Assembly (NCBI GenBank): GCA_036759285.1
Contig: DAIOUZ010000005.1
Coordinates: 1 to 33,331 of the forward strand
Origin: Candidatus Limiplasma sp.
Lineage (GTDB): Bacteria > Bacteroidota > Bacteroidia > Bacteroidales > F082
Length of the DNA stretch: 33,331 nucleotides
Direction: 5' to 3'
Made by a program: the position numbers and the translations under genes. Within the stretch, counting starts at the first letter, position 1. Each line of letters opens with the position of its first letter. The notes under the pieces were generated by a model. It was not told the DNA's origin, did not search any database, and was given only the letters and a program-made list of their open reading frames with translations. Of this stretch, positions 2,058-27,776 are shown in pieces.

Positions 2058-3732
2058 CACTCACCTCCTTGCTCACGATTACCGTCTTGAAGCCTTCGTC
2101 CTTCAGTTTAGCAAGGACTTTCTCGGTAATCTTTGCGGGCAGCTTCTTCAATCCGAATTTCACGGTCCTCTTGTTGGTCAACACGGTACCGCTGTCTTCG
2201 TCAAGGAAATCCTCAAAGGAGGTCTTCTCGGGGTCGACAATCATCATGCGGCCTATCAATTCCTCATCGGCGTAATCCTTAATCTTCAGTACATCGAAAG
2301 TGCGTTCCTTGGCAAAGTCGTCAATGCCGAACAAATCCTTCATGGCTTGCTCGTTGACCTCGGCCTGATAGAACAATCCGCTCATCTCGTCGTTGCTGGC
2401 ATAACTGACATTGGCAAGTACCAGGCAGCCGTTTTCAAAATGATAATAGAGGTTCTTATCGCTCACGCTGACACGGATGGTGTCCGTGGCATCCAAGTGA
2501 ACCTCCTTGCGGTTTGCTTTCAGCATCTGCGCTTTCTCCATGATGCGCTCGTCGATTTCATTGAGTGCCGCTTGTGCCTGTTCCTTGCGCCTTTTGGCCT
2601 CGGCTTTCATGCGTTCCTCGAAGGCCAACGCTTCTGCAACAGCGTTGACTGCTTCAATGCGCTCATCCTTGGTAATGTCTGCTATGGAGTCGCTGATTTC
2701 CTGAGACTCTTCCTCTGTCAATGCCCTGGCCGCGCTGGTTCCTTCTGTGGTGGCAAACAACCCAGCTTTGACAATGGATTTCATTACATCATCAATAGAA
2801 TCGAAATGGCCGAGATTGGCGGGCAGGAACATGAATTTTTCGTTGATGATGAAGTCACTGTCGATGTCATCAGCGATGACCACTTTTGGCCTCTCATCTT
2901 CGCCGTCTCTACCAAAGACCTTAGTGTCAGTAATACGCTCCTTGTTGGCTTCAAGCCAGTCAAGGAAATGGTCAAGCATGGCTTTCAGTTCCTTCTCGCT
3001 TTCCTCATGGGTATAAGTGTAGTATTCGGGGATGACCTCGCCGCTCAATGCGGGTTGTGTCTTTGTGCCGCCTTTCCACTTGATGACGCGGTATTCAAAA
3101 CCTTCCACCTCGTAACCGTTCTGCACAAGGCAATACGGATAGACATGGCGTTGCCACTTGCGCTCGAATTTCAGGAAATCATATTGCGTCGTGGTTTTTA
3201 GGTCGATAACCTTGTCATGCTGGAACTCATCTACATAGCCGTACAACTCAACAATACCATGCTCTGTCTCAATGGTTGCGGTGGTAAACACCTGTGAGGC
3301 ACTGTCAATGAGACCTTCCGCAACGCTTTTGCAAAACTCGAGGTCGAACAGGAATGTAAAGCCGTCAAGGGTTGCCGTGACAACTTTGTCATCCATCGTC
3401 ACGGTCATGCCCTCATATTGGCAGTCGCGACCGTCAAGAAGCATGTCGATAACCTCGTTGAAGCAGGTGCCTTTGTCGGCGGCCTCCCAAGGCTCATGCG
3501 GCACTCGGTTGATGGTGTCAACCAATTCTTGCTCCAGCTTGTCACACAATTCGTCAGGGGTGAGAATATAATCTCCAACCTCCTTGTCAGGATATTTGCC
3601 AGCTTCGATGGCTGTCTCGCTCACCTTGTTCCAAGGCTCCTCGGCTGCGGTTTCGTAGTCGAGGAACTCCTGGAACTTATCGAGCAAGGATGGGTAAATC
3701 CTGAAATCAGGCTTGCTCTTTTGGCTGTTCAT
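2047..3732 (-). CDS. RecB/Cas4-like PD-(D/E)xK nuclease domain protein with coiled-coil C-terminal half
   Basis: YGYVDEF..DKVIDLKTT followed by WQRHVYPY fits nuclease motifs II/III (D...D-x-K) plus the QxxxY motif. It is adjacent to a Sak4-like ATPase, as in phage recombination modules. The C-terminal half has no recognisable function. Confidence 0.6.
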   Translation of the reverse strand: MNSQKSKPDFRIYPSLLDKFQEFLDYETAAEEPWNKVSETAIEAGKYPDKEVGDYILTPDELCDKLEQELVDTINRVPHEPWEAADKGTCFNEVIDMLLDGRDCQYEGMTVTMDDKVVTATLDGFTFLFDLEFCKSVAEGLIDSASQVFTTATIETEHGIVELYGYVDEFQHDKVIDLKTTTQYDFLKFERKWQRHVYPYCLVQNGYEVEGFEYRVIKWKGGTKTQPALSGEVIPEYYTYTHEESEKELKAMLDHFLDWLEANKERITDTKVFGRDGEDERPKVVIADDIDSDFIINEKFMFLPANLGHFDSIDDVMKSIVKAGLFATTEGTSAARALTEEESQEISDSIADITKDERIEAVNAVAEALAFEERMKAEAKRRKEQAQAALNEIDERIMEKAQMLKANRKEVHLDATDTIRVSVSDKNLYYHFENGCLVLANVSYASNDEMSGLFYQAEVNEQAMKDLFGIDDFAKERTFDVLKIKDYADEELIGRMMIVDPEKTSFEDFLDEDSGTVLTNKRTVKFGLKKLPAKITEKVLAKLKDEGFKTVIVSKEVSDEK

Positions 3733-4678
3733 ACGCTTGTTTGGTTTTGTTGTAAGTCAATCCAAGTTCATTGGCCTTTTTCGCAAGGCGTTGCGAGGCA
3801 AGTTCTTTCGAGTTGTAGATGTGCTGGATTTGAAGCATGTCGTAGATGAATGCGTTGGCCGTGGATGCGTCAACCACTTCTTCTTCGATTCTCGCTTCAA
3901 TCATGCTCATCAAGTCCTCGAAATCGGCCACCTTCTCCTGGTCCTCCTTGCGACGGCGGAAGAAGTCGGTGATAATCCGTGCCAGATAATCGTTCTTTCC
4001 GACAGGGGTGCCATTGGCATCCACCGTGATGGGAAGTGAAATGACCGGTGGAAGGTTGCAAGTGTTCTTTGCATAGAAGCGGCTGCTGGGGTTGAAACTG
4101 ATGGTGCGTACCATGTCAGCACCGTCACCTCTGGCCTCCATGTAGCCAACAAGGTCAAGTTCCTTGATGAGGTCGTTGACTGAAGATCCGCCCACCTCAG
4201 GGCGAAGAACCGTTTCGTCGCCGCGTTTCTGTTCCTGTTCGTGTGCTATAAACACCAGCGATCTTCCTGTCAGTCTCACGCGGTTTATGAAGGCGATGAA
4301 CATCTGCTTTCTGGCACCATAGCCTTTCAGGGTGAGGCCACCGCTACGGTCACTCATGGTGCGCTTGGTGTCGGTACGCTTGATGTAGTCCTCCATGTAG
4401 GACAATAACTTTCCGCAGGTGTCGATGACAATGGTGTTGTAGTCTTGGCTGCCCTCTATCTCTTTGAGAGCCTCGTCGATGTCCTCCCATTTCTCGACTT
4501 GCAAGGTGGGCACCATGTGTGCGCCGTTAATTCTTGTCACGCCGCCATCGCAGTCGAACAAGACTGGATTTGGAGCGGAACATCCGAATGTGGTTTTGCC
4601 AATGCCTGGCTGGCCGTAAATCAGGACGGCCAATGTTGGTTTAACTACCAACTCTGATGGTTTTCTAATGAGACCCAT
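3707..4678 (-). CDS. Sak4-like / AAA_24 RecA-fold ATPase (recombination)
   Basis: Walker A is YGQPGIGKTT and Walker B-like is NTIVIDTCG. Size and context are typical of phage AAA_24 proteins. Confidence 0.75.
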   Translation of the reverse strand: MGLIRKPSELVVKPTLAVLIYGQPGIGKTTFGCSAPNPVLFDCDGGVTRINGAHMVPTLQVEKWEDIDEALKEIEGSQDYNTIVIDTCGKLLSYMEDYIKRTDTKRTMSDRSGGLTLKGYGARKQMFIAFINRVRLTGRSLVFIAHEQEQKRGDETVLRPEVGGSSVNDLIKELDLVGYMEARGDGADMVRTISFNPSSRFYAKNTCNLPPVISLPITVDANGTPVGKNDYLARIITDFFRRRKEDQEKVADFEDLMSMIEARIEEEVVDASTANAFIYDMLQIQHIYNSKELASQRLAKKANELGLTYNKTKQAYEQPKEQA

Positions 4679-4718
4679 ACTGATTGTAATTTAATTGTTT
4701 TGCCGCAATATCGCGGTG

Positions 4719-4809
4719 TGGAACGGGTCGGAATCGAACCGACTAATGTATGACTGGGAAAGTATAACCAGCGAAGACTTCCGTTTACTTCCTATCCGTC
4801 CCCCATTCC
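4719..4809 (-). tRNA. tRNA-like gene (91 nt) with canonical acceptor and T-arm but aberrant D/anticodon domain
   Basis: The minus strand reads GGAATGG...GTCGG-TTCGATT-CCGAC-CCGTTCC-A. It has a 7-bp acceptor stem (one G-U) and a perfect 5-bp T-stem with a TTCGATT loop. I could not fold any 5-bp/7-nt anticodon arm; the best is CTGG/CCAG with a 10-nt loop. No CCA is encoded. Confidence 0.35.
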
Positions 4810-4878
4810 GCCATCATTCCTTGCGGTTTGATGGCGAAGGATTTTTCCTCTTTTCAGTCGTGACTTCCCACGTTTTTT

Positions 4879-5976
4879 TCAATACTTGGATTTTGATACG
4901 ACAACCATGCGGTTCAATTCGGAATCGTTGCCAAATTGAGCCGTCACACCGTTTGCCATCGGAATGAGGCGGTCTTTATCCACATCGTAGTCGCTGATAA
5001 GTGCCTGATACACATTAAATGCACGATCGCCACTCAGTTTCTGGTTGTTATAGGAGTTCCCGTCAGGTGAAGCATACCCCTCAATCCTGTAGTTACCATC
5101 GTGAGTATTGATGTATTCTGCTATGCGTCTAATCTTTGCCTCCTCGATTGGCGTGATTTCTGCAGATGCGTAATCAAAGAAAACAGGCATCAATTCAAGA
5201 TTTGCATTAGTGCAATTCTCCGTTACTTGCTGCACCTCGGCCTGGCAATTGTTCAGCCTTTCCGCAGCCAATTCCAGTGCCGCCGTGGACCGCTCCAGCA
5301 AGTCCGTCAGCCTCGCATTATCCTCATCCTTCTTTTTCGCCTCCGACTTCAATAGGGCGTTTTCCTCCTTTATTTCGCCATAGGTCGTGCGAATGTGGTT
5401 GTCAATGTCGATGGCCACACGGTCACTTTCGATGATTCCCAGCCTTGCGGAATATCCAAGGCGGGCGAAAAAGGTATTGTCCCAGGCCGCATTGTTCTGA
5501 ACCAAGTCGCTGCCGCCCTCCAGCCACAGCATTGAGTGCTTCCCGAAGTTGACATTCAGTCCGAGGCCAGCATCAGCCGCAAGGCCGCATTTGGTCGCCA
5601 TTGTGGGATTGATAACCGCCCCAGCATCGGCAAAGAGATACATCCAATTGAGGAAGTCGAATGATGCACCAGCCATGGCCGTTCCGTAGCGATCGAAGTC
5701 TTCAACAGCCCCAAGTCCGTTAATGGAGGCCTCGTAGCGAAGCCGCCAATAGTCGCCCACACGCTTCGTCGCCAAGGCACTGAGGCCGACAGCACTTCTG
5801 CCGTGGTAGTTGGAGTATTGGCCAGCGATTCCCACCGTCCAATTTGACGCGAGGGAATACTTATGACCAGAATCATACCTGTAAGGCTTTTGCGCTGCTG
5901 CTGTCATGCAGAGAGCCAGCGCCATCAGGGTAACGGCAAGCCTCATCCCGCTACTCCTACTCAAAATTTTGTTCAT
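4879..5976 (-). CDS. OmpA-family outer-membrane protein (signal peptide + beta-rich N-domain + coiled coil + OmpA_C peptidoglycan-binding domain)
   Basis: The N-terminal signal is MRLAVTLMALALCMTAAAQ. The C-terminus FDYASAEIT...IRRIAEYIN...YRIEGYASPDGNSYNNQKLSGDRAFNVYQAL matches the OmpA/MotB motif (G..D..G....N..LS..RA). Confidence 0.8.
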   Translation of the reverse strand: MNKILSRSSGMRLAVTLMALALCMTAAAQKPYRYDSGHKYSLASNWTVGIAGQYSNYHGRSAVGLSALATKRVGDYWRLRYEASINGLGAVEDFDRYGTAMAGASFDFLNWMYLFADAGAVINPTMATKCGLAADAGLGLNVNFGKHSMLWLEGGSDLVQNNAAWDNTFFARLGYSARLGIIESDRVAIDIDNHIRTTYGEIKEENALLKSEAKKKDEDNARLTDLLERSTAALELAAERLNNCQAEVQQVTENCTNANLELMPVFFDYASAEITPIEEAKIRRIAEYINTHDGNYRIEGYASPDGNSYNNQKLSGDRAFNVYQALISDYDVDKDRLIPMANGVTAQFGNDSELNRMVVVSKSKY

Positions 5977-6984: not shown

Positions 6985-7002
6985 ACTGCTTTTGATTTTA
7001 AA

Positions 7003-7188
7003 TTAACTAATTCGTTTATTTTCTGTTTGAAATTTTCTTTCAGGCTTAATGGTAAACAACTTCTTTTGTTTCCTCAGCATCTTACCGATGCCGTCTGCCT
7101 CCATGAGGCTGAGGTCGTTGATGCGCGTGTTGTGTGATGTGTGGCAGTCGTTGAACACGGTCACTTGGTATTTTCTTCGTTCATCCAT
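7003..7188 (-). CDS. Hypothetical protein, first gene of the leftward early operon (61 aa)
   Basis: Called on position, immediately downstream of the switch region. No motif recognised. Confidence 0.4.
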   Translation of the reverse strand: MDERRKYQVTVFNDCHTSHNTRINDLSLMEADGIGKMLRKQKKLFTIKPERKFQTENKRIS

Positions 7189-7214
7189 TTTTTATTGATT
7201 TGTTTATTATTTTG

Positions 7215-7222
7215 TATTTTTG
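7215..7222 (+). promoter_or_regulatory. Candidate Bacteroidetes -7 box TATTTTTG (rightward, lysogeny operon)
   Basis: Exact match to the TAnnTTTG consensus, about 100 nt upstream of the repressor-like gene. Confidence 0.35.
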
Positions 7223-7248
7223 TCGCGTTATTTGTTTGTAACACGCTG

Positions 7249-7256
7249 CAAAAATA
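7249..7256 (-). promoter_or_regulatory. Candidate Bacteroidetes -7 box TATTTTTG (leftward, early operon)
   Basis: The plus strand reads caaaaata, so the minus strand reads TATTTTTG. It lies about 60 nt upstream of the ATG at 7188. A second candidate, TAAATTTG, is at 7304-7311 (minus). Confidence 0.35.
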
Positions 7257-7324
7257 AAGAACTTTATAATATGTTCAATGTTTTATATAAACTTTTTTAT
7301 AAACAAATTTATAAATAATTGAAA

Positions 7325-7732
7325 ATGACAAAGTTAGAAAGAATAAAAATCTTGATAAATATTCTGATTTTTAATGGCCATGCGGAAAGTCAGAAGGATT
7401 TTGGTATAAAAATGGGCTATGAAAACGAGTCTTATTTCAGCCAAATCATAAATGGAAAGGTAAATCTACCAAAGAACTTTATAGATAAACTAAAGTCCAT
7501 TGAGCCGAGAGTAAATGAAGAATGGATAGATGATGGGACAGGAGAAATGTTTATCGGCGATAATGCTGTCAACAGCAATTTCGCAAAAAACATCGGCGGT
7601 GACAACCAGCAGAACTCGGGCAAGGTGATAGAGGCTCTTGCCAACCAACTGACAGAAAAAGACCGTCAGATAGCCAAGAGCCAAGAGCAGATAGACAGAC
7701 TGCTTTCAATAATCGAAAAAATGAACTCATAA
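7325..7732 (+). CDS. XRE-type HTH protein with coiled-coil C-terminus (repressor candidate)
   Basis: SQKDFGIKMGYENESYFSQIINGK...EEWIDDGTGEMF is an HTH_3-like pattern. The ORF-track start at 7319 is TTG; the ATG at 7325 (MTKLER) is more likely. It is divergent from the early operon. Confidence 0.6.
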   Translation: MTKLERIKILINILIFNGHAESQKDFGIKMGYENESYFSQIINGKVNLPKNFIDKLKSIEPRVNEEWIDDGTGEMFIGDNAVNSNFAKNIGGDNQQNSGKVIEALANQLTEKDRQIAKSQEQIDRLLSIIEKMNS

Positions 7733-7743
7733 ATAATAACATC

Positions 7744-8823
7744 ATGGATTTCAAAGACCAATTCAAACAACTTGCTGAAAGGTTTTCAAAACTGAAAGAA
7801 CAGATTCAAACCGAAGAAGCCACAAAGAATGCTTTCATTATGCCATTTATCCAACTTTTGGGATATGATGTATTCAATCCATTGGAAGTTGTACCCGAAA
7901 TGGATTGTGACATATCCAAAAAGAAAGGAGAAAAAATTGACTATGCCATCATGAAAGATGGCGAACCCATTATGCTGTTTGAATGCAAGCATTGGAAGCA
8001 AGACCTCAATCTGCATGAAACACAACTTTCTCGTTACTTCGTATCGTCAAAAGCCCGCTTTGGTGTTCTCACGAATGGCCTAAAATATCGTTTTTATACG
8101 GATTTGGAAAAAGCCAACATCATGGATGCCCAGCCATTTCTTGAAGTGGATTTTGAAAAAGCAAAGGATGCCCAGATAGAAGAATTAAAGAAATTCCACA
8201 AATCCTATTTTGAAGTTGATAATATCCTCAGTTCGGCTTCAGAACTCAAGTATATGTCGGAACTCCGCAATGTTTTAAAAGAGGAGTTTCAAACACCATC
8301 TCCCGATTTTGTTAAACTTCTTGCCAAGAGGGTTTATCATGGTACCATGACTCAAAAAATGCTTGACCAATTCAACGACTTGGTAAAGCGTTCGGTTTCA
8401 TCATACATCAACGATGTTATTTCCGATAGATTGAATGTTGCCATACAATCAACTGAGAATAATGCATTGGCCAAAGAAACGCCAGATGAAAAGCAACTGG
8501 AAATTGTCGATGATGACAACGATAGTAAAATCGTCACGACAGAAGAAGAACTTGAAGGATTTTACATTGTTAAATCAATTCTTCGCCAATGTATTGAAGC
8601 GGATCGTATTGTTTACAGAGATGTTCAATCATATTTTGGTATCCTGATTGACGACAACAACAGAAAAGCCGTGTGTAGGCTTTACTTGAACACTCAGAAA
8701 AAATATATAGGTATTATAATGCCTGATAAAACTGAAAACAAACATCAAATCTCATCTATTGATGAAATTTACAATTATGAAGATGAACTGAAAAATGCTG
8801 TTTCAAAATTTGTGGAAAAATGA
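7744..8823 (+). CDS. Lone HsdR_N-type PD-(D/E)xK nuclease domain protein (no helicase or methylase partner in the window)
   Basis: KIDYAIMKDGEPIMLFECKHW (D...E-x-K) followed by QLSRYF...ARFGVLTNGLKYRFY matches the type I restriction enzyme R-subunit N-terminal nuclease domain. The C-terminal segment TTEEELEGFYIVKSIL...RIVYRDVQSYFGILIDDNNRKAVCRLYL is a domain that commonly accompanies it. Confidence 0.7.
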   Translation: MDFKDQFKQLAERFSKLKEQIQTEEATKNAFIMPFIQLLGYDVFNPLEVVPEMDCDISKKKGEKIDYAIMKDGEPIMLFECKHWKQDLNLHETQLSRYFVSSKARFGVLTNGLKYRFYTDLEKANIMDAQPFLEVDFEKAKDAQIEELKKFHKSYFEVDNILSSASELKYMSELRNVLKEEFQTPSPDFVKLLAKRVYHGTMTQKMLDQFNDLVKRSVSSYINDVISDRLNVAIQSTENNALAKETPDEKQLEIVDDDNDSKIVTTEEELEGFYIVKSILRQCIEADRIVYRDVQSYFGILIDDNNRKAVCRLYLNTQKKYIGIIMPDKTENKHQISSIDEIYNYEDELKNAVSKFVEK

Positions 8824-9050
8824 ATGAGCGACTAAAACACCTTATAGAATTGAAGACGAGCGGGAACCAGAAGGAATTCGCCGAATTGATGGGATGGTCG
8901 CCTCAATACATTACCAAATTGCTGAAAGGGGAGGGAGAATTCGGATTGAAACCCGTCTTGACCATTTTGTCTGCATTCCCTGAGATAGATGCCCGATGGC
9001 TGCTTTTTGGTCCTGGATCAACCGAAGCAAAAACTGATAAATCCGAATGA
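8820..9050 (+). CDS. XRE-type HTH protein (76 aa)
   Basis: GNQKEFAELMGWSPQYITKLLKGE...ARWLLFGPGS is the HTH pattern. The start is ATGA-coupled to the nuclease gene. Confidence 0.65.
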   Translation: MNERLKHLIELKTSGNQKEFAELMGWSPQYITKLLKGEGEFGLKPVLTILSAFPEIDARWLLFGPGSTEAKTDKSE

Positions 9051-9054
9051 CACT

Positions 9055-9312
9055 ATGCAGACAGAAGAGAGCCAAAAGATAGTGCTTCGGTTTTTCGAGG
9101 CCTTGAACATCTTGAAGGAAAACAAGCGGATTAGGGGAAAGAAGACCTTCACCGACCGTTACGGCATCAACCGCTGGAACCTGAACACGCTCGAGAAGGA
9201 GCCAGAACGCGACATCTTTCAGGTGGCCTGGCTCAATTATCTTGTAAGAGATTACGGCGTGTCGGCTGAATGGCTCCTGACCGGCAGAGGAAAGCCGTTG
9301 GTGAAAGGGTAG
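9055..9312 (+). CDS. HTH-like DNA-binding protein (85 aa from ATG 9055)
   Basis: The ORF-track start at 8989 overlaps the previous gene. The internal ATG at 9055 (MQTEESQK) follows its stop. The C-terminus YGVSAEWLLTGRGKP carries the XRE-type end motif. Confidence 0.55.
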   Translation: MQTEESQKIVLRFFEALNILKENKRIRGKKTFTDRYGINRWNLNTLEKEPERDIFQVAWLNYLVRDYGVSAEWLLTGRGKPLVKG

Positions 9313-9414: not shown

Positions 9415-10584
9415 TCAGTCGATTCTCCAAACCGTATCGTCGCCACCAAGCACACTCGGAATCTTTGAGACGGCGGCCTGCTTGTTTTTGTCAAGCACCT
9501 TGGCATAGATTTGTGTGGTGGACAATTCCTTGTGGCCAAGCAATTTGCTTACCGTATAGATATCGGTTCCGATGTCCAGCATCATAGTTGCGAAGGTGTG
9601 GCGGGCACAATGGAAGGTGATGTCTTTCTCAATCCCTGCCTTCTCGCACCAAAGCCTGATCATTCCGTTCACATAATCTGGGCAATGAAAAACAAACACT
9701 TTTTCGTCTGCCTTTCCGCGTTCCCCCATCAGTTCTGCCGCCTCGGGAGCAATATCAAGATATTCCTGTCCGTTGGTTTTTTTCTGCCTGAAAATGATGC
9801 GGGTGAATTCTCCTTGACTGTGCACCTCTCCCCATGTCAATTTTTCCACATCGCTTCTACGCAATCCAGTGAGGCAACTGAAAAGGAAAGCCCTCTTTAC
9901 CTCTGGGTCACGGCATTCTGTGGCGGCCAACAAACGAACCTCGTCAATAGTGAGGTACATCCTGGTGCCTTCGACCTGCTGGAAACCTTCAATTCCGACA
10001 GTCGGATTGCTGAGGATAATCCTTTCCTGATACGCTTGGTTGAGACAGGCAACAAGTTTTCGATAGTATGATGCTCTGCTATTCTTGGCCAAAGGCTTTT
10101 TTTCCTTCCTGTAGCCGACACTGCCTTGCCATGAGTCCGTGCTTTCAAGATAGTCATGGAAGCCTTGTACCCATTCAGGGGTAATTTCGGCGAATGTCCT
10201 TTGCTTCAGCCTGCTGTCATATCTCTGCAGGTGTTTGAGACATGACCGCCAATTACCCCAATTGCCGAGTGACTCAACCCCACGCCGAGCCTCGACCATA
10301 CTGACGAAATAATCATAGAAGTTCATCTTTTCTTTGGCCTGGTTCTTAAATCCGAACTCACCATTACGGATCTCGACAACACGCTTTGCCCTTACTGCCT
10401 CTGCAAGGGCAAGAGTGTTGCGGTTGTTTTCCTTATCGGCACGGGTCTTTTCGGGGACCAGGTAGAGACGGAGGTATTCATAACTCCGATTGCCGTTTAC
10501 ATAGATATCAAGATAGAGTGATTCGCTTCCGTCCTTCATTTTACGCTTGCGCAAACGGACGGGTTCTTTCGACTGTTTTTCCAT
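9415..10584 (-). CDS. int: Tyrosine site-specific integrase (Bacteroidetes phage/CTn type)
   Basis: It has an N-terminal arm-binding/SAM-like region. The catalytic residues are in ...GLRRSDV... and FHCARHTFATMML...LLGHKELSTTQIYAKV (R...HxxR...Y). Confidence 0.95.
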   Translation of the reverse strand: MEKQSKEPVRLRKRKMKDGSESLYLDIYVNGNRSYEYLRLYLVPEKTRADKENNRNTLALAEAVRAKRVVEIRNGEFGFKNQAKEKMNFYDYFVSMVEARRGVESLGNWGNWRSCLKHLQRYDSRLKQRTFAEITPEWVQGFHDYLESTDSWQGSVGYRKEKKPLAKNSRASYYRKLVACLNQAYQERIILSNPTVGIEGFQQVEGTRMYLTIDEVRLLAATECRDPEVKRAFLFSCLTGLRRSDVEKLTWGEVHSQGEFTRIIFRQKKTNGQEYLDIAPEAAELMGERGKADEKVFVFHCPDYVNGMIRLWCEKAGIEKDITFHCARHTFATMMLDIGTDIYTVSKLLGHKELSTTQIYAKVLDKNKQAAVSKIPSVLGGDDTVWRID

Positions 10585-15634: not shown

Positions 15635-16972
15635 CTATGGTTCAATATACTCCATCTGGTTTGTTGAGCCTTTGAAGATGTAGCCACATTGGTTCTCAAT
15701 CTCCATTTCCTCCAAGGGCAGCATGTTTTGTTTGCCGAAAGTTCGTTCAGCTATTGTGATGAACTCCACAATATACATGTAGCTGCCATGAAACTCGTAG
15801 GCTTTCATTCTGCCTGTCTGGTTGCCTTCTTCGTCCATTTCGGGAATACCAATCAAGCACTTAATCCAATTGTTATTGCCCTTTGCATCGGATTTCATGT
15901 CATAGTCGAAGATTGTAAACATTTTGCCTTCAAGTTCTTTTGGAGCAATATTCGGAGCATCCAATTTGCGGTTAATTTTGATTTTTTCGGTAAGTTGTCT
16001 CAGTTTCATTTTCTGTTCTATTTTTAGCATTAGATTGTATGCGTCTGCATGTCTCATCAGGCCGTAGTAACTCGCCCATGATTTGTCGTTTCTGCATTTA
16101 GATGCACGGGTACGAATGTTATGCCGAATGGTGGTGTAGCCTTTGTTATGGTCTGTAACGCCACGATCAGGGTTTCTGTGGACGATGTAGCCGCAAAACG
16201 ACACTTCCTTTGTCAGTGGCTGTAACCTGATGGCCGAGGCTTTGGCTCTAATCTGCAACTTATACCACCAAAAGTTCTGTACACGCCATTTCAGTTGGTT
16301 GGCATCCTCTTTGGTATAGGTAGCAAAGAGGCAGTCGTCAGCGTAGCGCATTGCAAATGGAGCCACTTGCTTGCTCCATAAATCAAACCCCAGCATGACA
16401 ATATGGTGGATGAGGGGTGAGGTCGGAGTGCCGATAGGCAAGTGCCCGTCAACAAAACTGACAGCAATACCGAACTCTATCAGTTCACGGTCGCCAGTCA
16501 ACCCCCGCATCGCCTTGCGAAATATCTTTGGGGTGATATGCTCATAGCATTTCCTCTGATCGATGATTAGGCCATAGGTCAAATCGCGTCTGTCATACAT
16601 CAGATGCTTCAGCCGATGGATGACAGAGTTAGCCCGTTCTGATGATGTGATTCCACAACCAGGCTTGCAGTTGATGCCGTTTTTGTTGTCGTGCCAGTCA
16701 TAATAAGGCTTGGCCAACAATATGAAAAGGTGCTGCAAAACAAACGGGAAAAGAAAAGGCGATTTTATATGCCGAGTTTTTCCGTTCGGGTTCTGCTTAG
16801 TGAGTGTTCTATACTTGAGTTGTTTGCGGTACCAGCCATTGGTTATAGATGCCATGACGGACTCGGCATAGGCTTCCGCGTTGGCCATCATGCGCTCCAC
16901 CTCCTTTTTGTTGGAGTGGCCTTTGGCCGCATTGGTCATCGCGGCAAGCACTATGTCCTTCGTCACTCTCAT
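15635..16972 (-). CDS. DGR reverse transcriptase (445 aa)
   Basis: RT motifs present are NPNGKTRHIKSP, IIDQRKCYEHI, LPIGTPTSPLIHHIVM and MRYADDCLF (YADD). It lies 150 nt downstream of the TR on the same strand. Confidence 0.9.
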   Translation of the reverse strand: MRVTKDIVLAAMTNAAKGHSNKKEVERMMANAEAYAESVMASITNGWYRKQLKYRTLTKQNPNGKTRHIKSPFLFPFVLQHLFILLAKPYYDWHDNKNGINCKPGCGITSSERANSVIHRLKHLMYDRRDLTYGLIIDQRKCYEHITPKIFRKAMRGLTGDRELIEFGIAVSFVDGHLPIGTPTSPLIHHIVMLGFDLWSKQVAPFAMRYADDCLFATYTKEDANQLKWRVQNFWWYKLQIRAKASAIRLQPLTKEVSFCGYIVHRNPDRGVTDHNKGYTTIRHNIRTRASKCRNDKSWASYYGLMRHADAYNLMLKIEQKMKLRQLTEKIKINRKLDAPNIAPKELEGKMFTIFDYDMKSDAKGNNNWIKCLIGIPEMDEEGNQTGRMKAYEFHGSYMYIVEFITIAERTFGKQNMLPLEEMEIENQCGYIFKGSTNQMEYIEP

Positions 16973-17122
16973 GGCTCAATGTCAAGTTTGAGCAGTCGGC
17001 AAGAATCAGGCATTTCAACCAAATCTTGCCACTGGCCTCAGCCTTTCGGCTCGCCAGCTTGTCTATGTATGTCTGCCGCTTCTGGGCACGGGTGACAGGC
17101 AATCTTTATTCCATTGCTCATA

Positions 17123-17232
17123 CTTTAGCAGAAGCGCAATAGTACGCATTCGTGTTGGCTACCGTGTTGTTCGCATTGAGATAACGCGCTGACAAATTGC
17201 TGTTGTTAGCGTTGTTGCCACAGCGGACACCT
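17123..17232 (-). repeat. DGR template repeat (TR), 110 bp
   Basis: 101/110 identical to 17421-17530 at a constant offset of 298. All 9 differences are at coding-strand adenines of this copy. In frame it reads ...GNNANNSNLSARYLNANNTVANTNAYYCASAK (AAC/AAT-rich). Confidence 0.9.
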
Positions 17233-17306
17233 GCCTGTCGCCCTTTGTTTGTCCTCACGCCTTCGGAGGTGCGGTCACTATGCCGCACTCGTGCGCTACG
17301 ACGCGG

Positions 17307-17314
17307 CAAAAATA
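17307..17314 (-). promoter_or_regulatory. Candidate -7 box TATTTTTG upstream of TR (promoter for the TR-RT transcript)
   Basis: The plus strand reads caaaaata. It sits between the target-gene terminator and the TR. Confidence 0.35.
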
Positions 17315-17324
17315 GGAAAATTTC

Positions 17325-17349
17325 AAAAAAAAACCGCCCTTTGGGGCGG
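17325..17349 (-). terminator. Rho-independent terminator of the DGR target gene
   Basis: The minus strand reads CCGCCC-CAAA-GGGCGG followed by T9 (17325-17333). Confidence 0.7.
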
Positions 17350-17357
17350 TAAGGGTC

Positions 17358-17374
17358 GGGCGATTGCATCGCCC
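17358..17374. other. GC hairpin GGGCGA-TTGCA-TCGCCC just downstream of the VR/target stop
   Basis: 6-bp perfect stem with a 5-nt loop. It is part of a run of phased TTGCA motifs. Confidence 0.5.
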
Positions 17375-17400
17375 TTGCAGCCGTTGCACGGCGTTGCACG

Positions 17401-20400
17401 CTATTGCACATCCAACAAAACTTGAGCAGAAGCGCAATAGTACGCAGACGTGTTGGCTACCGTGCTGTACGCATTGAGATAACGCGCTGACAAATAGCTG
17501 TTGCTAGCGTTGAAGCCACAGCGGACACCTACACGGGTTTTCTTTCCCGCGCTACCCCAGTAGTTGGCCATGTAGCCGTAGCCGCACTCGCCTTTGCCGA
17601 AGGTTGCACCTTGCGTGACTGGCAACGGCGTGTTTGGCAAGCGACGGCGAATGTAACCATTGGCACGGGTGACAATGCTTCCTGCGTAACGGTATTTGTC
17701 CTCAAAGCCTGACGGAAATTTTTCTCCAATGTTGACGCTGGTGTTGCCTTCGTTGACCCACTTTTCTTGGTCAGGTTCAATGTAGGCTTTCAGCGTATAG
17801 CCGTAACTGCCACTGGAAGGTGCAGTCTTACACTCGCCCAAAACTTCAATTCCACCTCCCCAATATGGACCGATATCACCTGACATGTCGCATCCAAGCA
17901 TCAATCCAGTACGCAGGCAGCATTCTACCGTGAAGGTTTCAGGGGTGCCGTTCGCGTCACTATAGGCGGCAAATTCACCCGTCACAATTTTGTACACCCT
18001 TGCGTTCATGTAGCCATCGGCCACGGTGGGAGGCGTGAAAGTGGATGTGGTCGGGTCGACATACCACCACACGCAACCGTTGAACTCAAACTTTTCGCCT
18101 GCGGCAATGCCGAACTCGACGGCAAACGACACGGCAATCTGAGCCTCCAAAGTCTTAGCGTGAGGACCATAGGAGGTCAACATGGCGGCCATGTCGGTAG
18201 TTTTGTATGTGCTGCCGTCTTTGTAATAGATTTTGCCGCTTCCTCCCCAATTCTTGTATGTCCATTCGCTGTCACCTGAGGCTTTAATGCGTACACCGCC
18301 TCTTGCAAGCCATTGGCTTTCTTCGCCACATGCGTCAACGGCGGTGATGCCGCTGCTGAAACGAGCATACGAGCAAAGATATTTCGTCCCCAAGGCTGTC
18401 TCGATGCAACGCAAGAATGTGTTGCGGGCGTGCCATCCACCTTCGGACACAGGGAATGGAGCCGTAGTGTCGTGGTTGTTTCTTCGTGCCGTGGTCTTGG
18501 CATCAATCTGGCTGTATCCCGAAGTCGGATAGTGGCCATTGTCGTAAAACATGGCACAGTTCGAGGCATAGCCTTTTCTTCCTCTAACACCTGTCAAACT
18601 CGACGGATAATTGTAGAAGAAACTGCGGAGCTTATTTACGGAGTTCTCACTGATGGCCGTGGCGGGTGACGGGCAGATACCCGTAGGTTTCAAAGCAAAG
18701 GTCTTCACGTCAACACCGTCCCACACATTCGCGTTAGCACCAAGAATACCGTTCCACTCCTTGCCCGATGATCCAACCACATTGTCGAGAAGAAATACTT
18801 CATCTTTACGGCCAACGAAAATAGAGTATTTCGTTTCGACAGTTTCCCATGGCATGAGATAGTGAGAGACTTCCACATAGGTGGTTTCCTCGTTTTCGGT
18901 CACGGCCTTATAGAGAGTGGGGTGAGTGAGTTTCTTCACGCCATCCACGATTGCGATACTGCAAAGCGCAAGGAAAGTCTCAGGGTCGAAAGAGCCTGCT
19001 GCGCAATATTGGTTCTGCCCCTCGTTGTCGGTGTAAAGTGCGTTGGCCATGCATTCGTCGCGCATTGCTGTGGTAATGCCCACAACGGGTGCCCAATTGC
19101 CGTAAATATCACGTAACCAGTTGTTTTTACGTAACTCCATCACTGGGCGCTTCTTCGTCTCGCCTTCCACGGCTGTCATGTCAACGATGAAAGGTCGCCA
19201 ATCCAATGCCCATTCCTTATTTCCGAACACTGCCAAGGCTTCTGGGTTGTCCTGGTCTGTCGGACTGGCCGTGTTTGCGTTTTCAAGCCAAGCACCGACA
19301 CAATAGAGCGGTTTGGTATATGATTGCTCATCCAATTCAGCCATGACCAACTTGAATTCCTTCATCATGGTTCTAACGCTGTCTTTGAAGCCAATCATAT
19401 AACTGATAACAATCGTCCCGGTGGATGACTCGCCACCAACCACTTCTTCGGTCCCCATGTCGTTAGGCATTTTTCCTGTCGGGTTAATCGAGTGTGTTCC
19501 CGTGACGGGAGTTGCGATTTGGTAATCTACATATAAACCAGCGAATGCAGTTGCAGGGTCAATCTGTTCCTCACTGTCGAAAACGAGTTTGTAGCCGTCA
19601 AGTGTAACGCCCTCAATGTCGCTTCGGATGAGACCGTCACGCATGGCCGCGTATGTTCCTGATGTCGGCAAGCTCGCCGTGTATCGATAACCGCTCGTTG
19701 CCTGTCCTTCGCCCTCAATGACTTCGCCCTCAATCTCGGTTTCAGTCCATGTGAGGCTTGTCAGAAGTTGTGCAGCTATATTTCTCTCATAAGTTCCGCC
19801 GCCTTCAGGATAGATGATAATGCTGTCGAAGATACCGCTATTACCTTGTTCGATGCCCCTAAGGATAAGGCAGGTCTTCCCGTTGATTGTAGTGGTTTGA
19901 AATTTGCTCGTAAGGGCTGAAACGGCCACGACAAGTTCCACAGGAGTGGTGTACTCAGTAAATATATCATAATCCTTGCTCCATGCCAGATGCGCAGAAA
20001 TGTCAGCCAGCACAGCGGAATTGGTCAATTCTATGACCAAATATCCCTCATCAGGAAGGTAGAATGTGTGCGGGTGTCCTGTTGCCACATGGCTTTCAAC
20101 GGCATTGACTTCGGAACCGTCAGATGGGAGCGTGGTCGAATGCCAAACTCCGACAACAACTCCGTCACCGACTTTCAGATTGTTTCCGTTTCTATCGGTA
20201 ATCAGATAACCGTTGTTTTTCTCTGCCGTACCCCATTCTCCGAACTCGCATTTCGGACAGCGGATGATGCATAATTTATTGTTGCCTGATCCGATAGTGC
20301 CTCCGCTTACCTCGCCAAGGAAATAACCGTTTGTTTTACCTGAAGACCATGCTGCTGGATTCAGTTGGTTGCTTCCGTTCCATCTCATGGCGTTGATTTT

Positions 20401-20874
20401 GAAAGCCTCGCTTTCGGCACCGCCGCAACCTCCAATGAGTTGTAATAGTAGGGCTTCTTTGCTACTATCGATGCTCTCGTTGCCCGCTGTGGTCCTTATG
20501 ACGAATTTGTCTTTTACCGTAACGCGGTCGTTGAGAGAAACGAGGTCGCCAGCGATAAGGTTTGGATAGGTTCCATTAGCTGTGACAAGATTAGGGAACG
20601 TGCCGTTGGCAATGGCATCAAGCAGGTTTGTTTCATGCCAATGGTTCTCATTCCAATCTTCATGAGGGCTGATTGCCACGATACACTCATAGAGTTTTCC
20701 ATCCCTCGTGCAATGGTCTCCGACAGCGTAAGGGGCATTCGGATCATAAGCAGGAGAAATGGCCTCCATGTTTGCTCTCAGATGAGGATAAATCCCTTCA
20801 TCATCAAAAAAGGTTGGGTGTCCCCAGTGATTTCGGTGGCCACCCCATTGATTTCTTGTGCTGTTGTCTGACAT
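17401..20874 (-). CDS. DGR target: 1157-aa tail fiber/receptor-binding-like protein with C-terminal variable region
   Basis: A large ORF in the tail module. The last ~40 codons (...VGVRCGFNASNSYLSARYLNAYSTVANTSAYYCASAQV) are the VR. A C-type-lectin-like fold is an inference only. Confidence 0.85.
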   Translation of the reverse strand: MSDNSTRNQWGGHRNHWGHPTFFDDEGIYPHLRANMEAISPAYDPNAPYAVGDHCTRDGKLYECIVAISPHEDWNENHWHETNLLDAIANGTFPNLVTANGTYPNLIAGDLVSLNDRVTVKDKFVIRTTAGNESIDSSKEALLLQLIGGCGGAESEAFKINAMRWNGSNQLNPAAWSSGKTNGYFLGEVSGGTIGSGNNKLCIIRCPKCEFGEWGTAEKNNGYLITDRNGNNLKVGDGVVVGVWHSTTLPSDGSEVNAVESHVATGHPHTFYLPDEGYLVIELTNSAVLADISAHLAWSKDYDIFTEYTTPVELVVAVSALTSKFQTTTINGKTCLILRGIEQGNSGIFDSIIIYPEGGGTYERNIAAQLLTSLTWTETEIEGEVIEGEGQATSGYRYTASLPTSGTYAAMRDGLIRSDIEGVTLDGYKLVFDSEEQIDPATAFAGLYVDYQIATPVTGTHSINPTGKMPNDMGTEEVVGGESSTGTIVISYMIGFKDSVRTMMKEFKLVMAELDEQSYTKPLYCVGAWLENANTASPTDQDNPEALAVFGNKEWALDWRPFIVDMTAVEGETKKRPVMELRKNNWLRDIYGNWAPVVGITTAMRDECMANALYTDNEGQNQYCAAGSFDPETFLALCSIAIVDGVKKLTHPTLYKAVTENEETTYVEVSHYLMPWETVETKYSIFVGRKDEVFLLDNVVGSSGKEWNGILGANANVWDGVDVKTFALKPTGICPSPATAISENSVNKLRSFFYNYPSSLTGVRGRKGYASNCAMFYDNGHYPTSGYSQIDAKTTARRNNHDTTAPFPVSEGGWHARNTFLRCIETALGTKYLCSYARFSSGITAVDACGEESQWLARGGVRIKASGDSEWTYKNWGGSGKIYYKDGSTYKTTDMAAMLTSYGPHAKTLEAQIAVSFAVEFGIAAGEKFEFNGCVWWYVDPTTSTFTPPTVADGYMNARVYKIVTGEFAAYSDANGTPETFTVECCLRTGLMLGCDMSGDIGPYWGGGIEVLGECKTAPSSGSYGYTLKAYIEPDQEKWVNEGNTSVNIGEKFPSGFEDKYRYAGSIVTRANGYIRRRLPNTPLPVTQGATFGKGECGYGYMANYWGSAGKKTRVGVRCGFNASNSYLSARYLNAYSTVANTSAYYCASAQVLLDVQ
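17421..17530 (-). repeat. DGR variable repeat (VR), 110 bp
   Basis: Cognate of the TR. Substitutions give N->F,S,Y,Y,S,S and K->Q relative to the TR reading frame. Confidence 0.9.
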
Positions 20875-20877
20875 GGC

Positions 20878-21150
20878 TTATTCGTATTTTATGTAGGCTC
20901 CCGTGAGGCTGCCTGTGGTTGTGATTTTGTAATATGAATACCTACTCAGATCGGCTTCAATGTTGATGGAACCGATTGGAGGAATGGTGAACTGCTTCAA
21001 CTCCTCGTCATAATGGCTGTCATCGGCTGAATAATGCAGCGTCAACGTACCTGAACCAAAAAACAGGAAGTGTGCAAAGTTGGCTTTCGCTTGAAACGGC
21101 TTCACATTGCCGTTTTCCAATTCGAGTTTAATCAGTTTTGATGTGTCCAT
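20878..21150 (-). CDS. Hypothetical small tail-module protein (90 aa)
   Basis: It tightly packs between the Dit-like gene and the DGR target. It is acidic and beta-rich and does not resemble Avd. Confidence 0.55.
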   Translation of the reverse strand: MDTSKLIKLELENGNVKPFQAKANFAHFLFFGSGTLTLHYSADDSHYDEELKQFTIPPIGSINIEADLSRYSYYKITTTGSLTGAYIKYE

Positions 21151-27671: not shown

Positions 27672-27776
27672 TGTCAGAAGGCGGACTCGAACCGCCGACT
27701 CTCGTACTGACTTTTATGGTGCGCTATTGCCAGTAATCCATTACGCACCACGCTCTACCAACTGAGCTACACTGAC
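27672..27776 (-). tRNA. tRNA-like gene (105 nt) with canonical acceptor, D-arm and T-arm but a grossly expanded anticodon/variable region
   Basis: The minus strand reads GTCAGTG-TA-GCTC-AGTTGGTA-GAGC-G-[54 nt]-GGCGG-TTCGAGT-CCGCC-TTCTGAC-A. The 54-nt middle forms a 7-bp stem TGGTGCG/CGCACCA with a 20-nt loop plus a 20-nt tail. No 5-bp/7-nt anticodon arm exists at any position. Confidence 0.45.

Follow-up and report, generated by a model that had tools for sequence, protein, structure and literature searches.

The subject of this report is a diversity-generating retroelement (DGR) carried on a stretch of 33,331 nucleotides deposited under the name Candidatus Limiplasma sp. (GenBank assembly GCA_036759285.1, contig DAIOUZ010000005.1, positions 1 to 33,331), which we refer to throughout as the window. 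The element is a compact cassette in which a target gene with its variable repeat (VR), a template repeat (TR) and the gene for a reverse transcriptase (RT) follow one another in that order on the minus strand, the strand to which all cassette coordinates given below refer. The target gene (17401..20874) is an open reading frame (ORF) of 1157 amino acids (aa) with VR (17420..17530, 111 nt) at its 3' end, inside the final 45 codons and with 16 nt between the end of VR and the stop codon. TR (17122..17232, 111 nt, of which 32 are adenines) comes next and is followed, across a spacer, by the RT ORF (15635-16972, 445 aa). The intervals between these parts are short: 168 nt from the target stop codon to TR, 187 nt from VR to TR and 149 nt from TR to the RT start codon, in agreement with the 168 and 150 nt given in a first-pass annotation of the same DNA. 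That annotation, which was made from the letters and ORFs of the window, described the DGR as non-canonical because it appeared to lack an Avd-like accessory gene, to carry an S-P residue pair in RT motif 4 and to extend the RT at its C-terminus.

TR and VR are 92% identical, and the mismatches between them fall without exception (9/9) at TR adenines. An adenine-confined TR/VR pair, an RT gene next to TR and a VR at the 3' end of the target ORF, the features by which a DGR is recognized, are all present here. RT proteins identical to that of the window are also found on contigs of other sequencing runs, and one of these contigs, from a second sample (L086), bears directly on whether the element is at work. 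Its RT is 100% identical to that of the window and its TR and spacer are without differences, and its VR departs from the window VR at 16 positions within 76 nt, every one of which (16/16) lies opposite a TR adenine. Because the L086 VR differs only at TR adenines, we conclude that the element is active and that adenine mutagenesis is carried out in nature by a DGR that has no Avd, carries the S-P pair and bears a C-terminal RT domain. In three other metagenome contigs with an identical RT (L085, L087 and L088) the sequence breaks off just upstream of the RT gene, where the TR/VR repeat lies, so that the RT tends to be parted from its target in assemblies.

The RT core (aa 1-322; 16007..16972) consists of an N-terminal extension, fingers, palm and thumb, as delimited with Pfam RVT_1, hhalign and Foldseek. 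RVT_1 (aa 117-262) is the only Pfam match in the protein, and the 328-aa RT of Bordetella phage BPP-1 (bRT) aligns to aa 3-321 (hhalign 97.3%). When an AlphaFold2 (AF2) model of the full RT, with a predicted local distance difference test score (pLDDT) of 87, was compared with the PDB by Foldseek, the best E value (1.4e-13) was obtained with the group II intron RT GsI-IIC (6AR1) and the best target-normalised TM-score (0.79) with bRT (8ub7_A). Motif 4 reads LPIGTPTSPL (aa 178-187, nt 16412-16441), exactly the hybrid that had been read from the translation, and motif 5 reads YADD (aa 210-213, nt 16334-16345). Measured against the [I/L/V]GxxxSQ signature of DGR RTs, the motif retains Ile-Gly and Ser and has P where the last Q would stand (IGTPTSP). 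In an alignment of 57 RTs of the family (51-83% identity), P179, G181, P183, S185 and R67 never vary, I180 is retained by 56/57, and residue 186 is a proline in 47 of the proteins, a serine in nine and an alanine in one. By hhalign R67 and I180 are the equivalents of bRT R74 and I181, both of which promote adenine misincorporation in bRT (PMC7826257), and both are kept in the family. Because the bRT substitution Q187P leaves the frequency of adenine misincorporation unaltered (Handa 2021, PMC7826257) and the R74 and I181 equivalents are conserved, the S-P pair appears to be functionally unremarkable, a known and probably neutral variant, and SQ would serve to recognize DGR RTs in silico without being needed for function. 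We also observed that YADN replaces YADD in 6/57 of the family RTs (e.g., P0096), the rest of the protein, including its C-terminal domain, being conserved.

Beyond the point at which bRT ends, the window RT continues for ~123 aa (aa 323-445), as measured by hhalign and from the thumb helices of the AF2 model (aa 284-322). The extension noticed in the first-pass annotation is real and, as was said there, it has no recognizable motif, but the length of ~145 aa assigned to it was too great. It begins with a basic linker of 18 aa (aa 323-340, KLRQLTEKIKINRKLDAP; 15953..16006), which has low confidence in the model (pLDDT <50 at aa 326-338), and passes into a C-terminal domain (aa 341-445; 15635..15952) of which ~100 aa (~341-437) are folded in the AF2 model. 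Modelled alone, the domain is built from three long strands in antiparallel arrangement, a single helix and three further, short strands, and its core has a pLDDT >90. The three parts of the protein differ sharply in charge, with an isoelectric point (pI) of 4.6 for the domain (family median 4.9, range 4.3-5.8) against 10.4 for the linker and 9.8 for the core. Mean pairwise identity within the family is 0.63 for the domain as compared to 0.60 for the fingers and palm. From these alignments the domain, as conserved as the palm and new here, appears to define an RT clade.

Outside of this clade the domain has few counterparts. It matched no Pfam (E<=10) or NCBIfam model, and a Foldseek search of the PDB returned no fold match (best E 0.14, TM <0.33). 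Against BFVD there were three matches at E<=0.0034, all of them C-terminal parts of other viral RTs with 12-21% identity, and we treat these viral RT tails as a lead only. An exhaustive phmmer search with the domain alone, through 1.84 billion representatives, gave 81 matches, nearly all of which are the C-termini of RT-length proteins or short fragments, the remainder being a few weak ones to a short repeat-like stretch in unrelated long proteins; the remote domain-bearing members also retain IGTPTSP. Copies of the domain standing by themselves would have served as Rosetta-stone evidence that a separate accessory gene exists; one seemingly free-standing copy (P0122, 128 aa, starting from the invariant Met322) turned out to be a gene-calling artefact, since on its contig (L002) the full-length RT gene is present with a frameshift. 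P0122 is the sole copy that was examined, and the other domain matches of 118-160 aa likewise begin at Met322. A catalytic reading of the conserved residues E393, H395, C372 and C429 was dropped when the distant members P0187 and P0193 were found to lack these residues. As a class, C-terminal extensions have precedents, in that ~20% of DGR RTs extend up to ~150 aa past the thumb with no recognizable motif (Wu 2018, PMC5758913).

With respect to an accessory gene, the inspection of the ORFs by eye and the systematic searches agree. A Pfam scan of 125 six-frame window ORFs of 60-260 aa, in which the positive control, BPP-1 Avd, reached 7e-36, returned neither bAvd (PF22296) nor HRDC at E<0.05, and PF05635 is absent from the 24 families that were matched in the window ORF scan. 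The scan was accordingly empty for avd and HRDC, the accessory types MSL and CH1 not having been specifically searched for. An accessory gene would not fit into gaps of 168 and 149 nt, and the two ORFs that had been noticed and dismissed there do exist and are what they were taken to be, the frame of TR itself (17118..17411) and an ORF that overlaps the start of the RT gene out of frame (16809..17102). A 90-aa ORF nearby (20878..21150), which had been set aside as acidic and unlike Avd, has a pI of 5.5 and no family match. Among 129 free-standing small ORFs located <=6 kb from the cassette in 10 diverse relatives, bAvd matched only the spiked-in control.

The relatives of the RT are numerous, and they place the element in a clade that has already entered the literature. 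They form 409 protein clusters in a collection of 5.8 billion proteins, and among the 120 relatives listed most are ~445 aa long and nearly all have 97-100% query coverage. Among 50,697 phage records, only crAssE-Sib (OR575929, Babkin 2024, PMC11054128) gave a strong match to the RT, with 49.9% of residues identical across aa 8-444; when the same records were searched with the cassette by megablast nothing matched, such that relatives in them are detectable at the protein level only. IMG/VR contains 217 loci, of which 80 were fetched and 72 had enough upstream flank for the cassette layout to be read. In all of these (72/72) VR is separated from TR by 137-366 nt and TR from RT by 113-239 nt, and the mismatches are adenine-biased; an Avd gene would be too long for most of the family's VR-TR gaps. 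Three marks appear from the sequences to characterize the clade: motif 4 in the form PIGTPTS[P/S], the conserved C-terminal domain, and the compactness of the target(VR)-TR-RT cassette, which has no accessory gene. The RT of the window belongs to the same clade as that of the published crAssE-Sib DGR, and the S-P pair and the C-terminal domain, which the first-pass annotation had singled out as departures, are standard in that already described clade. The word non-canonical holds relative to the Bordetella prototype, and not for DGRs at large, in which each of the traits has been documented.

It is the cassette that belongs to the clade, and the phage does not. The window phage does not reside among the epsilon crAss-like genomes, homologues of the genes that flank the cassette in the window are absent from all family loci, and the flanking genes of crAssE-Sib occur only in crAssE-like loci. 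Because no neighbouring gene is common across loci, the cassette seems to travel alone, which suggests that the target end, TR and RT move as a module without a companion gene. The backbones in which the same cassette was encountered include the integrase-bearing prophage of the window, epsilon crAss-like genomes that are 130-160 kb in size and loci in which there are Phage_Mu_Gp36 or Mu_F genes (L005-L041).

Several candidate cis elements, of both DNA and RNA, are packed into the short gaps of the cassette. On the 3' side of VR there are two hairpins with TGCAA pentaloops (17358..17392), GCCG-TGCAA-CGGC (17380-17392) and GGGCGA-TGCAA-TCGCCC (17358-17374), which are probable target-recognition hairpins, and the hairpin that a DGR is expected to have downstream of VR is in this way present twice. 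Throughout the family, hairpins with a YGCAR loop and a stem of >=4 bp number 39 in 22 VR-TR gaps (8.85/kb), as compared to seven in 536 kb elsewhere, an enrichment of ~680-fold. The loop is either TGCAA or CGCAG, with usually two and up to four hairpins per locus (L001-L038 and the window), and the hairpins stand at fixed offsets of ~30 and ~50 nt past VR with stems that vary by locus and keep their pairing. Target recognition in BPP-1 needs a GRNA-tetraloop hairpin/cruciform downstream of VR (PMC3240598), and by analogy the YGCAR hairpins are likely to be its counterpart, duplicated and with another loop consensus.

Farther along the same gap lie the terminator and the promoter-like box that had been noticed there on first reading. 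The former is an intrinsic-terminator-like hairpin, ACCGCCC-CAAA-GGGCGGT (17333-17350), with a run of nine T (17324..17350 in all), which would end the target transcript; hairpin and T-run are kept in close relatives (L003-L013), with varying loops. The latter, TATTTTTG (17307..17314), was read by eye, is also found in close relatives, and is a putative promoter of the TR-RT unit that fits the Bacteroidetes -7 promoter consensus, TAnnTTTG. Between this box and TR there is a leader hairpin, GTGCGG-CATAGTGA-CCGCAC (17269-17288), whose 8-nt loop (CAnnGnGA) and the CCTCYGAA that follows it are, by eye, kept in both subclades, with differing stems.

The RNA that would be read from TR and its surroundings has a recurrent layout. 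Directly 5' of TR, a leader strand, GGGCGACAGGCA (17232..17243), pairs with a spacer strand, TTGCCTGTCACCC (17090..17102), that is separated from the end of TR by a 5' spacer segment of 19 nt (17103..17121). This leader:spacer duplex, mostly of ~11-15 bp and with energies of -17 to -30 kcal/mol, recurs in 21/21 diverse loci despite their differing sequences. The two strands are out of register in the alignment, and the duplex was hence tested sequence by sequence with duplexfold against shuffles, <=6/200 of which were as good in 20/21 loci. After the duplex comes a spacer hairpin, TGCC-CAGAAGC-GGCA (17074..17088), with a 4-bp stem and a heptaloop of consensus YNGRANH, which was the one structure that RNAalifold recovered from the whole 504-column alignment; its stem shows compensatory changes (UA/UG/AU, GC/UA and CG/UA/GC) among 21 sequences, and the distance to it from the end of TR ranges from 16 to 51 nt in the family. 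The A-rich single strand past the hairpin contains an invariant AGAC (17061..17064; columns A214 G215 A216 C217 of alignment A4), and more stem-loops, recognized partly by eye, lie between this stretch and the RT start codon. In 77/83 loci hairpin and AGAC are found together at most 260 nt upstream of the RT, as compared to 12 occurrences in 2.06 Mb of other sequence. One candidate for a priming site is a mini-hairpin, UGCU/AGCA, which may form where TR ends.

Taken as a whole, these observations are best explained by an active, Avd-less DGR of the crAssE-Sib type of RT clade, in which the RT alone would work on a compact RNA. We put the probability of this explanation at roughly 0.8. According to it, the TR-RT unit would be transcribed separately, downstream of the terminator of the target gene; the leader just 5' of TR would pair with the spacer, and the heptaloop hairpin, the A-rich AGAC strand and the stem-loops would follow; the RT would by itself bind this RNA and make adenine-mutagenised cDNA, by which VR would be replaced; and the YGCAR-loop hairpins downstream of VR would assist targeting. 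Several points weigh against it. Avd genes are poorly conserved, so that an empty scan with hidden Markov models falls short of proving absence, and the claim of absence is further limited by the 33-kb window, which omits part of the prophage. The parallels that the RNA offers to BPP-1 appear to be ones of layout and not of sequence homology, and a site analogous to the priming adenine of BPP-1, Sp A56, could not be assigned. As for the domain, AF2 placed it unreliably relative to the core, and an acidic domain with no match to a nucleic-acid-binding fold would seem to fit poorly with the gripping of RNA.

What the C-terminal domain contributes is a separate matter, on which we are much less confident than on the identity of the element. 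The domain and the Avd-less compact cassette occur together at every locus that was examined, and we tentatively favour a role for the domain as an accessory module in cis that is held on a basic, flexible linker and stabilises the RT-RNA particle, a task that Avd performs in trans, by a chemistry other than that of Avd, with odds that we would place below even. The stronger proposition, that the domain is a built-in accessory that turns the RT into a self-sufficient, single-protein DGR enzyme acting on an RNA of ~340 nt, we consider rather unlikely, if by no means far-fetched.

The domain might instead do its work outside of cDNA synthesis, by recruiting a host factor, by recognizing the YGCAR hairpins of the target at integration, or as an acidic autoinhibitor or regulator that covers the basic core until RNA is bound. 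We would not bet on such a role, and yet it draws on real evidence: the contrast between the pI values of domain, core and linker; the want of a nucleic-acid-binding fold match; the RT of crAssphage cr6_1, which at 342 aa indicates that Avd-less cDNA synthesis needs no such domain; and a family-specific loop consensus downstream of VR that could need a dedicated reader. There is, on the other hand, no sign that a partner exists, the domain never occurs free but only as part of the RT (the stand-alone copy examined being the frameshift artefact described above), and it co-varies with the family-specific spacer RNA, which would equally fit a role in the ribonucleoprotein particle.

The first-pass annotation had raised the idea that the extension could take over from Avd. 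Read strictly, as a fused Avd that replaces the original like for like as a basic, nucleic-acid-binding scaffold in touch with the N-terminal extension of the RT and with the spacer RNA, this is improbable. The domain does accompany Avd-less cassettes at all of the loci examined, its conservation does equal that of the palm, and an Avd-binding stem-loop would not fit in the 5' spacer. In its properties, however, it does not resemble Avd, a basic four-helix bundle of ~110-130 aa with a pI of ~9.5 (PMC5758913), being itself acidic (pI 4.6) and rich in beta strands, with no significant similarity to bAvd (BLASTP E 0.096) and no Pfam match. It also hangs off the end of the thumb, whereas Avd contacts the N-terminal extension (bioRxiv 10.1101/2023.10.23.563531), and Avd-less DGRs that have no such domain exist, as in cr6_1.

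Still less credence can be given to an Avd-type protein that exists outside of the window or elsewhere in the host, or that is too diverged for the Pfam models. The window does stop in the midst of structural genes and leaves part of the prophage uncovered. Against this stand the empty scans of the 125 window ORFs and of the 129 ORFs around 10 relatives, with a control that scored 7e-36; the presence of the cassette in unrelated backbones with no common neighbour; the case of crAssE-Sib, in which there is no coding sequence (CDS) from VR to RT and 0/25 genes around the cassette are named Avd; and the genome-wide searches of Avd-less DGRs by Wu et al., in which no Avd was found (PMC5758913). 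Least credible by far is an RT of retron or group II type, excluded by its SP from the true DGR RTs and lying beside a decayed repeat, as might be imagined from the prevalence of SP in those two groups, from best NCBIfam matches that are weak retron and group II models and from the failure of myDGR on crAssE-Sib (PMC11054128), since this is contradicted by the ongoing adenine-specific diversification of VR and by the A-biased TR/VR pairs at all 72 loci, and disfavoured by the Ile of IGxxxS (56/57), the invariant R74 equivalent and bRT having the top target-normalised TM-score (0.79).

The cassette is part of a phage genome. Besides the DGR, the window encodes a tyrosine integrase (9415-10584, minus strand), a GH108 endolysin and other tail genes, and it ends among phage structural genes, so that only part of the prophage is covered; the host element is an integrase-bearing prophage, probably of Bacteroidales origin, with the DGR located within its block of tail genes. 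The target belongs to the tail/receptor-binding region. Its sole Pfam match is a weak one to CBM_5_12 (aa 42-76), its C-terminal part is common to 73/81 family loci, and a sequence search of the PDB with its C-terminal 259 aa gave no match. Adjoining the integrase gene is an island of low GC content (7000-9000; 0.35-0.38 vs ~0.48) with plus-strand ORFs at 7319-7732, 7744-8823 and 8989-9312, which could be cargo at the end of the prophage or a junction with the host. An Rfam tRNA-model match of 40.8 bits and 105 nt (27672-27776, minus strand) lies between ORFs of the tail region in a place where ARAGORN calls no tRNA, and may represent a tRNA with an insertion or something tRNA-like.

The wider interest of the clade lies in the fact that whatever is known of the DGR mechanism was learned from the bRT-Avd-RNA particle, and the question of how DGRs without Avd function, which make up approximately one quarter of the total, has been posed in print. 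The clade offers a tractable test case, as it is abundant in gut viromes, active and compact, and has mapped candidate cis elements. Tools that require GxxxSQ, such as myDGR, miss the whole clade, with the consequence that surveys of DGRs in gut phages undercount them. If the RT were indeed self-sufficient, it would be the first defined solution to Avd-independent retrohoming, and it would provide a simpler chassis for engineered targeted hypermutation.

Among known systems, the group II intron RT GsI-IIC (6AR1) has an S-P pair in motif 4 like that of the window RT, but in these enzymes the motif is QGxxxSP, with Gln in place of Ile, and they have no TR/VR system; 6AR1, with its D domain, was absent from the 50 best PDB matches listed for the C-terminal domain. 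In comparison with BPP-1, the RT core aligns along the full length of bRT with R74 and I181 kept. In both elements RNA upstream of TR forms a duplex with the spacer, followed by a small hairpin, a single strand and stem-loops, and both have a hairpin downstream of VR. In the BPP-1 RNA the corresponding order is the cPRT-stop duplex, a small stem-loop, A-minor adenosines with a ring around the thumb, and an RT-binding stem-loop, and the spacer starts at its 5' end with a 31-nt Avd-binding stem-loop, contained in a stretch of ~57 nt that leads up to the duplex strand (bioRxiv 10.1101/2023.10.23.563531). Neither this stem-loop nor Avd (128 aa in BPP-1, a basic pentamer) is present in the window cassette, which has no room for a stem-loop of the BPP-1 type because its 5' spacer is only 19 nt long, and we infer that the DGR RNA resembles the BPP-1 type with the Avd handle removed. 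The two systems differ further in that bRT stops at the thumb and has SQ, whereas the window RT has SP and adds a linker and a domain of ~100 aa, and in the hairpin downstream of VR, which has a GRNA tetraloop in BPP-1 and is represented here by two YGCAR pentaloops.

DGRs without Avd have been known for some time. Architecture A (Avd-less, TG-VR-TR-RT) accounts for ~29% of DGRs, lineage 3 is without avd, and an Avd-independent mechanism of retrohoming was inferred in 2018 (Wu 2018, PMC5758913). Architecture A and lineage 3 are found in Bacteroides and their phages with the order target-VR-TR-RT, and the likeness of the window to them is one of architecture only. Crassphage LMMB has another Avd-less DGR (PMC7290462), and 16/18 of the zeta crAss DGRs are without Avd (PMC12386605). 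The LMMB RT, unlike that of crAssE-Sib, gave no tblastn match at E<=1e-5, and the other Avd-less crAss-like RTs (zeta clade) carry GxxxSQ where the window RT has GxxxSP. The Avd-less DGR of crAssphage cr6_1 (L084; VR 1817-1904, TR 2031-2118) has the 342-aa RT without the domain that was mentioned above; its RT CDS (2260-3288) contains 10 in-frame stops under table 11 and its VR an in-frame TAG, which is consistent with stop-codon recoding. Bacteroides phage BT-TP2 (PQ571279, L083) is also Avd-less (VR 3069-3180, TR 3354-3465, RT 3680-4975), and its long RT of 431 aa aligns with aa 3-371, i.e., through the thumb, the linker and the first strand of the extension (hhalign 97.8%). It differs in having a canonical IGLRSSQ and in lacking the family's spacer hairpin motif, and its C-terminal 85 aa alone show no significant similarity to the domain (E 0.37).

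The system that resembles the window element most is that of crAssE-Sib. The two have in common the C-terminal domain, GxxxSP in motif 4 and the order of parts, which in crAssE-Sib is a receptor-binding protein gene with VR and the initiation of mutagenic homing site (IMH), then TR with IMH*, then RT, with no CDS annotated in between, and crAssE-Sib also has the spacer hairpin with its AGAC motif and the YGCAR hairpins. They differ in backbone, a 151-kb crAss-like genome in one case and an integrase-bearing prophage in the other with no neighbour genes in common, and in the VR-TR gap, which is 353 nt in crAssE-Sib vs 187 nt in the window. The crAssE-Sib paper reports the GxxxSP and the fact that myDGR misses the element, and mentions neither Avd nor the C-terminal domain (PMC11054128); a later paper repeats the GxxxSP point (PMC12386605). 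Neither the C-terminal domain nor the clade's cis elements, in RNA and DNA, had been described before, and the DGR of the window adds a new and active member to an Avd-less GxxxSP RT clade of which the first member was described in 2024, in an architecture class known since 2018.

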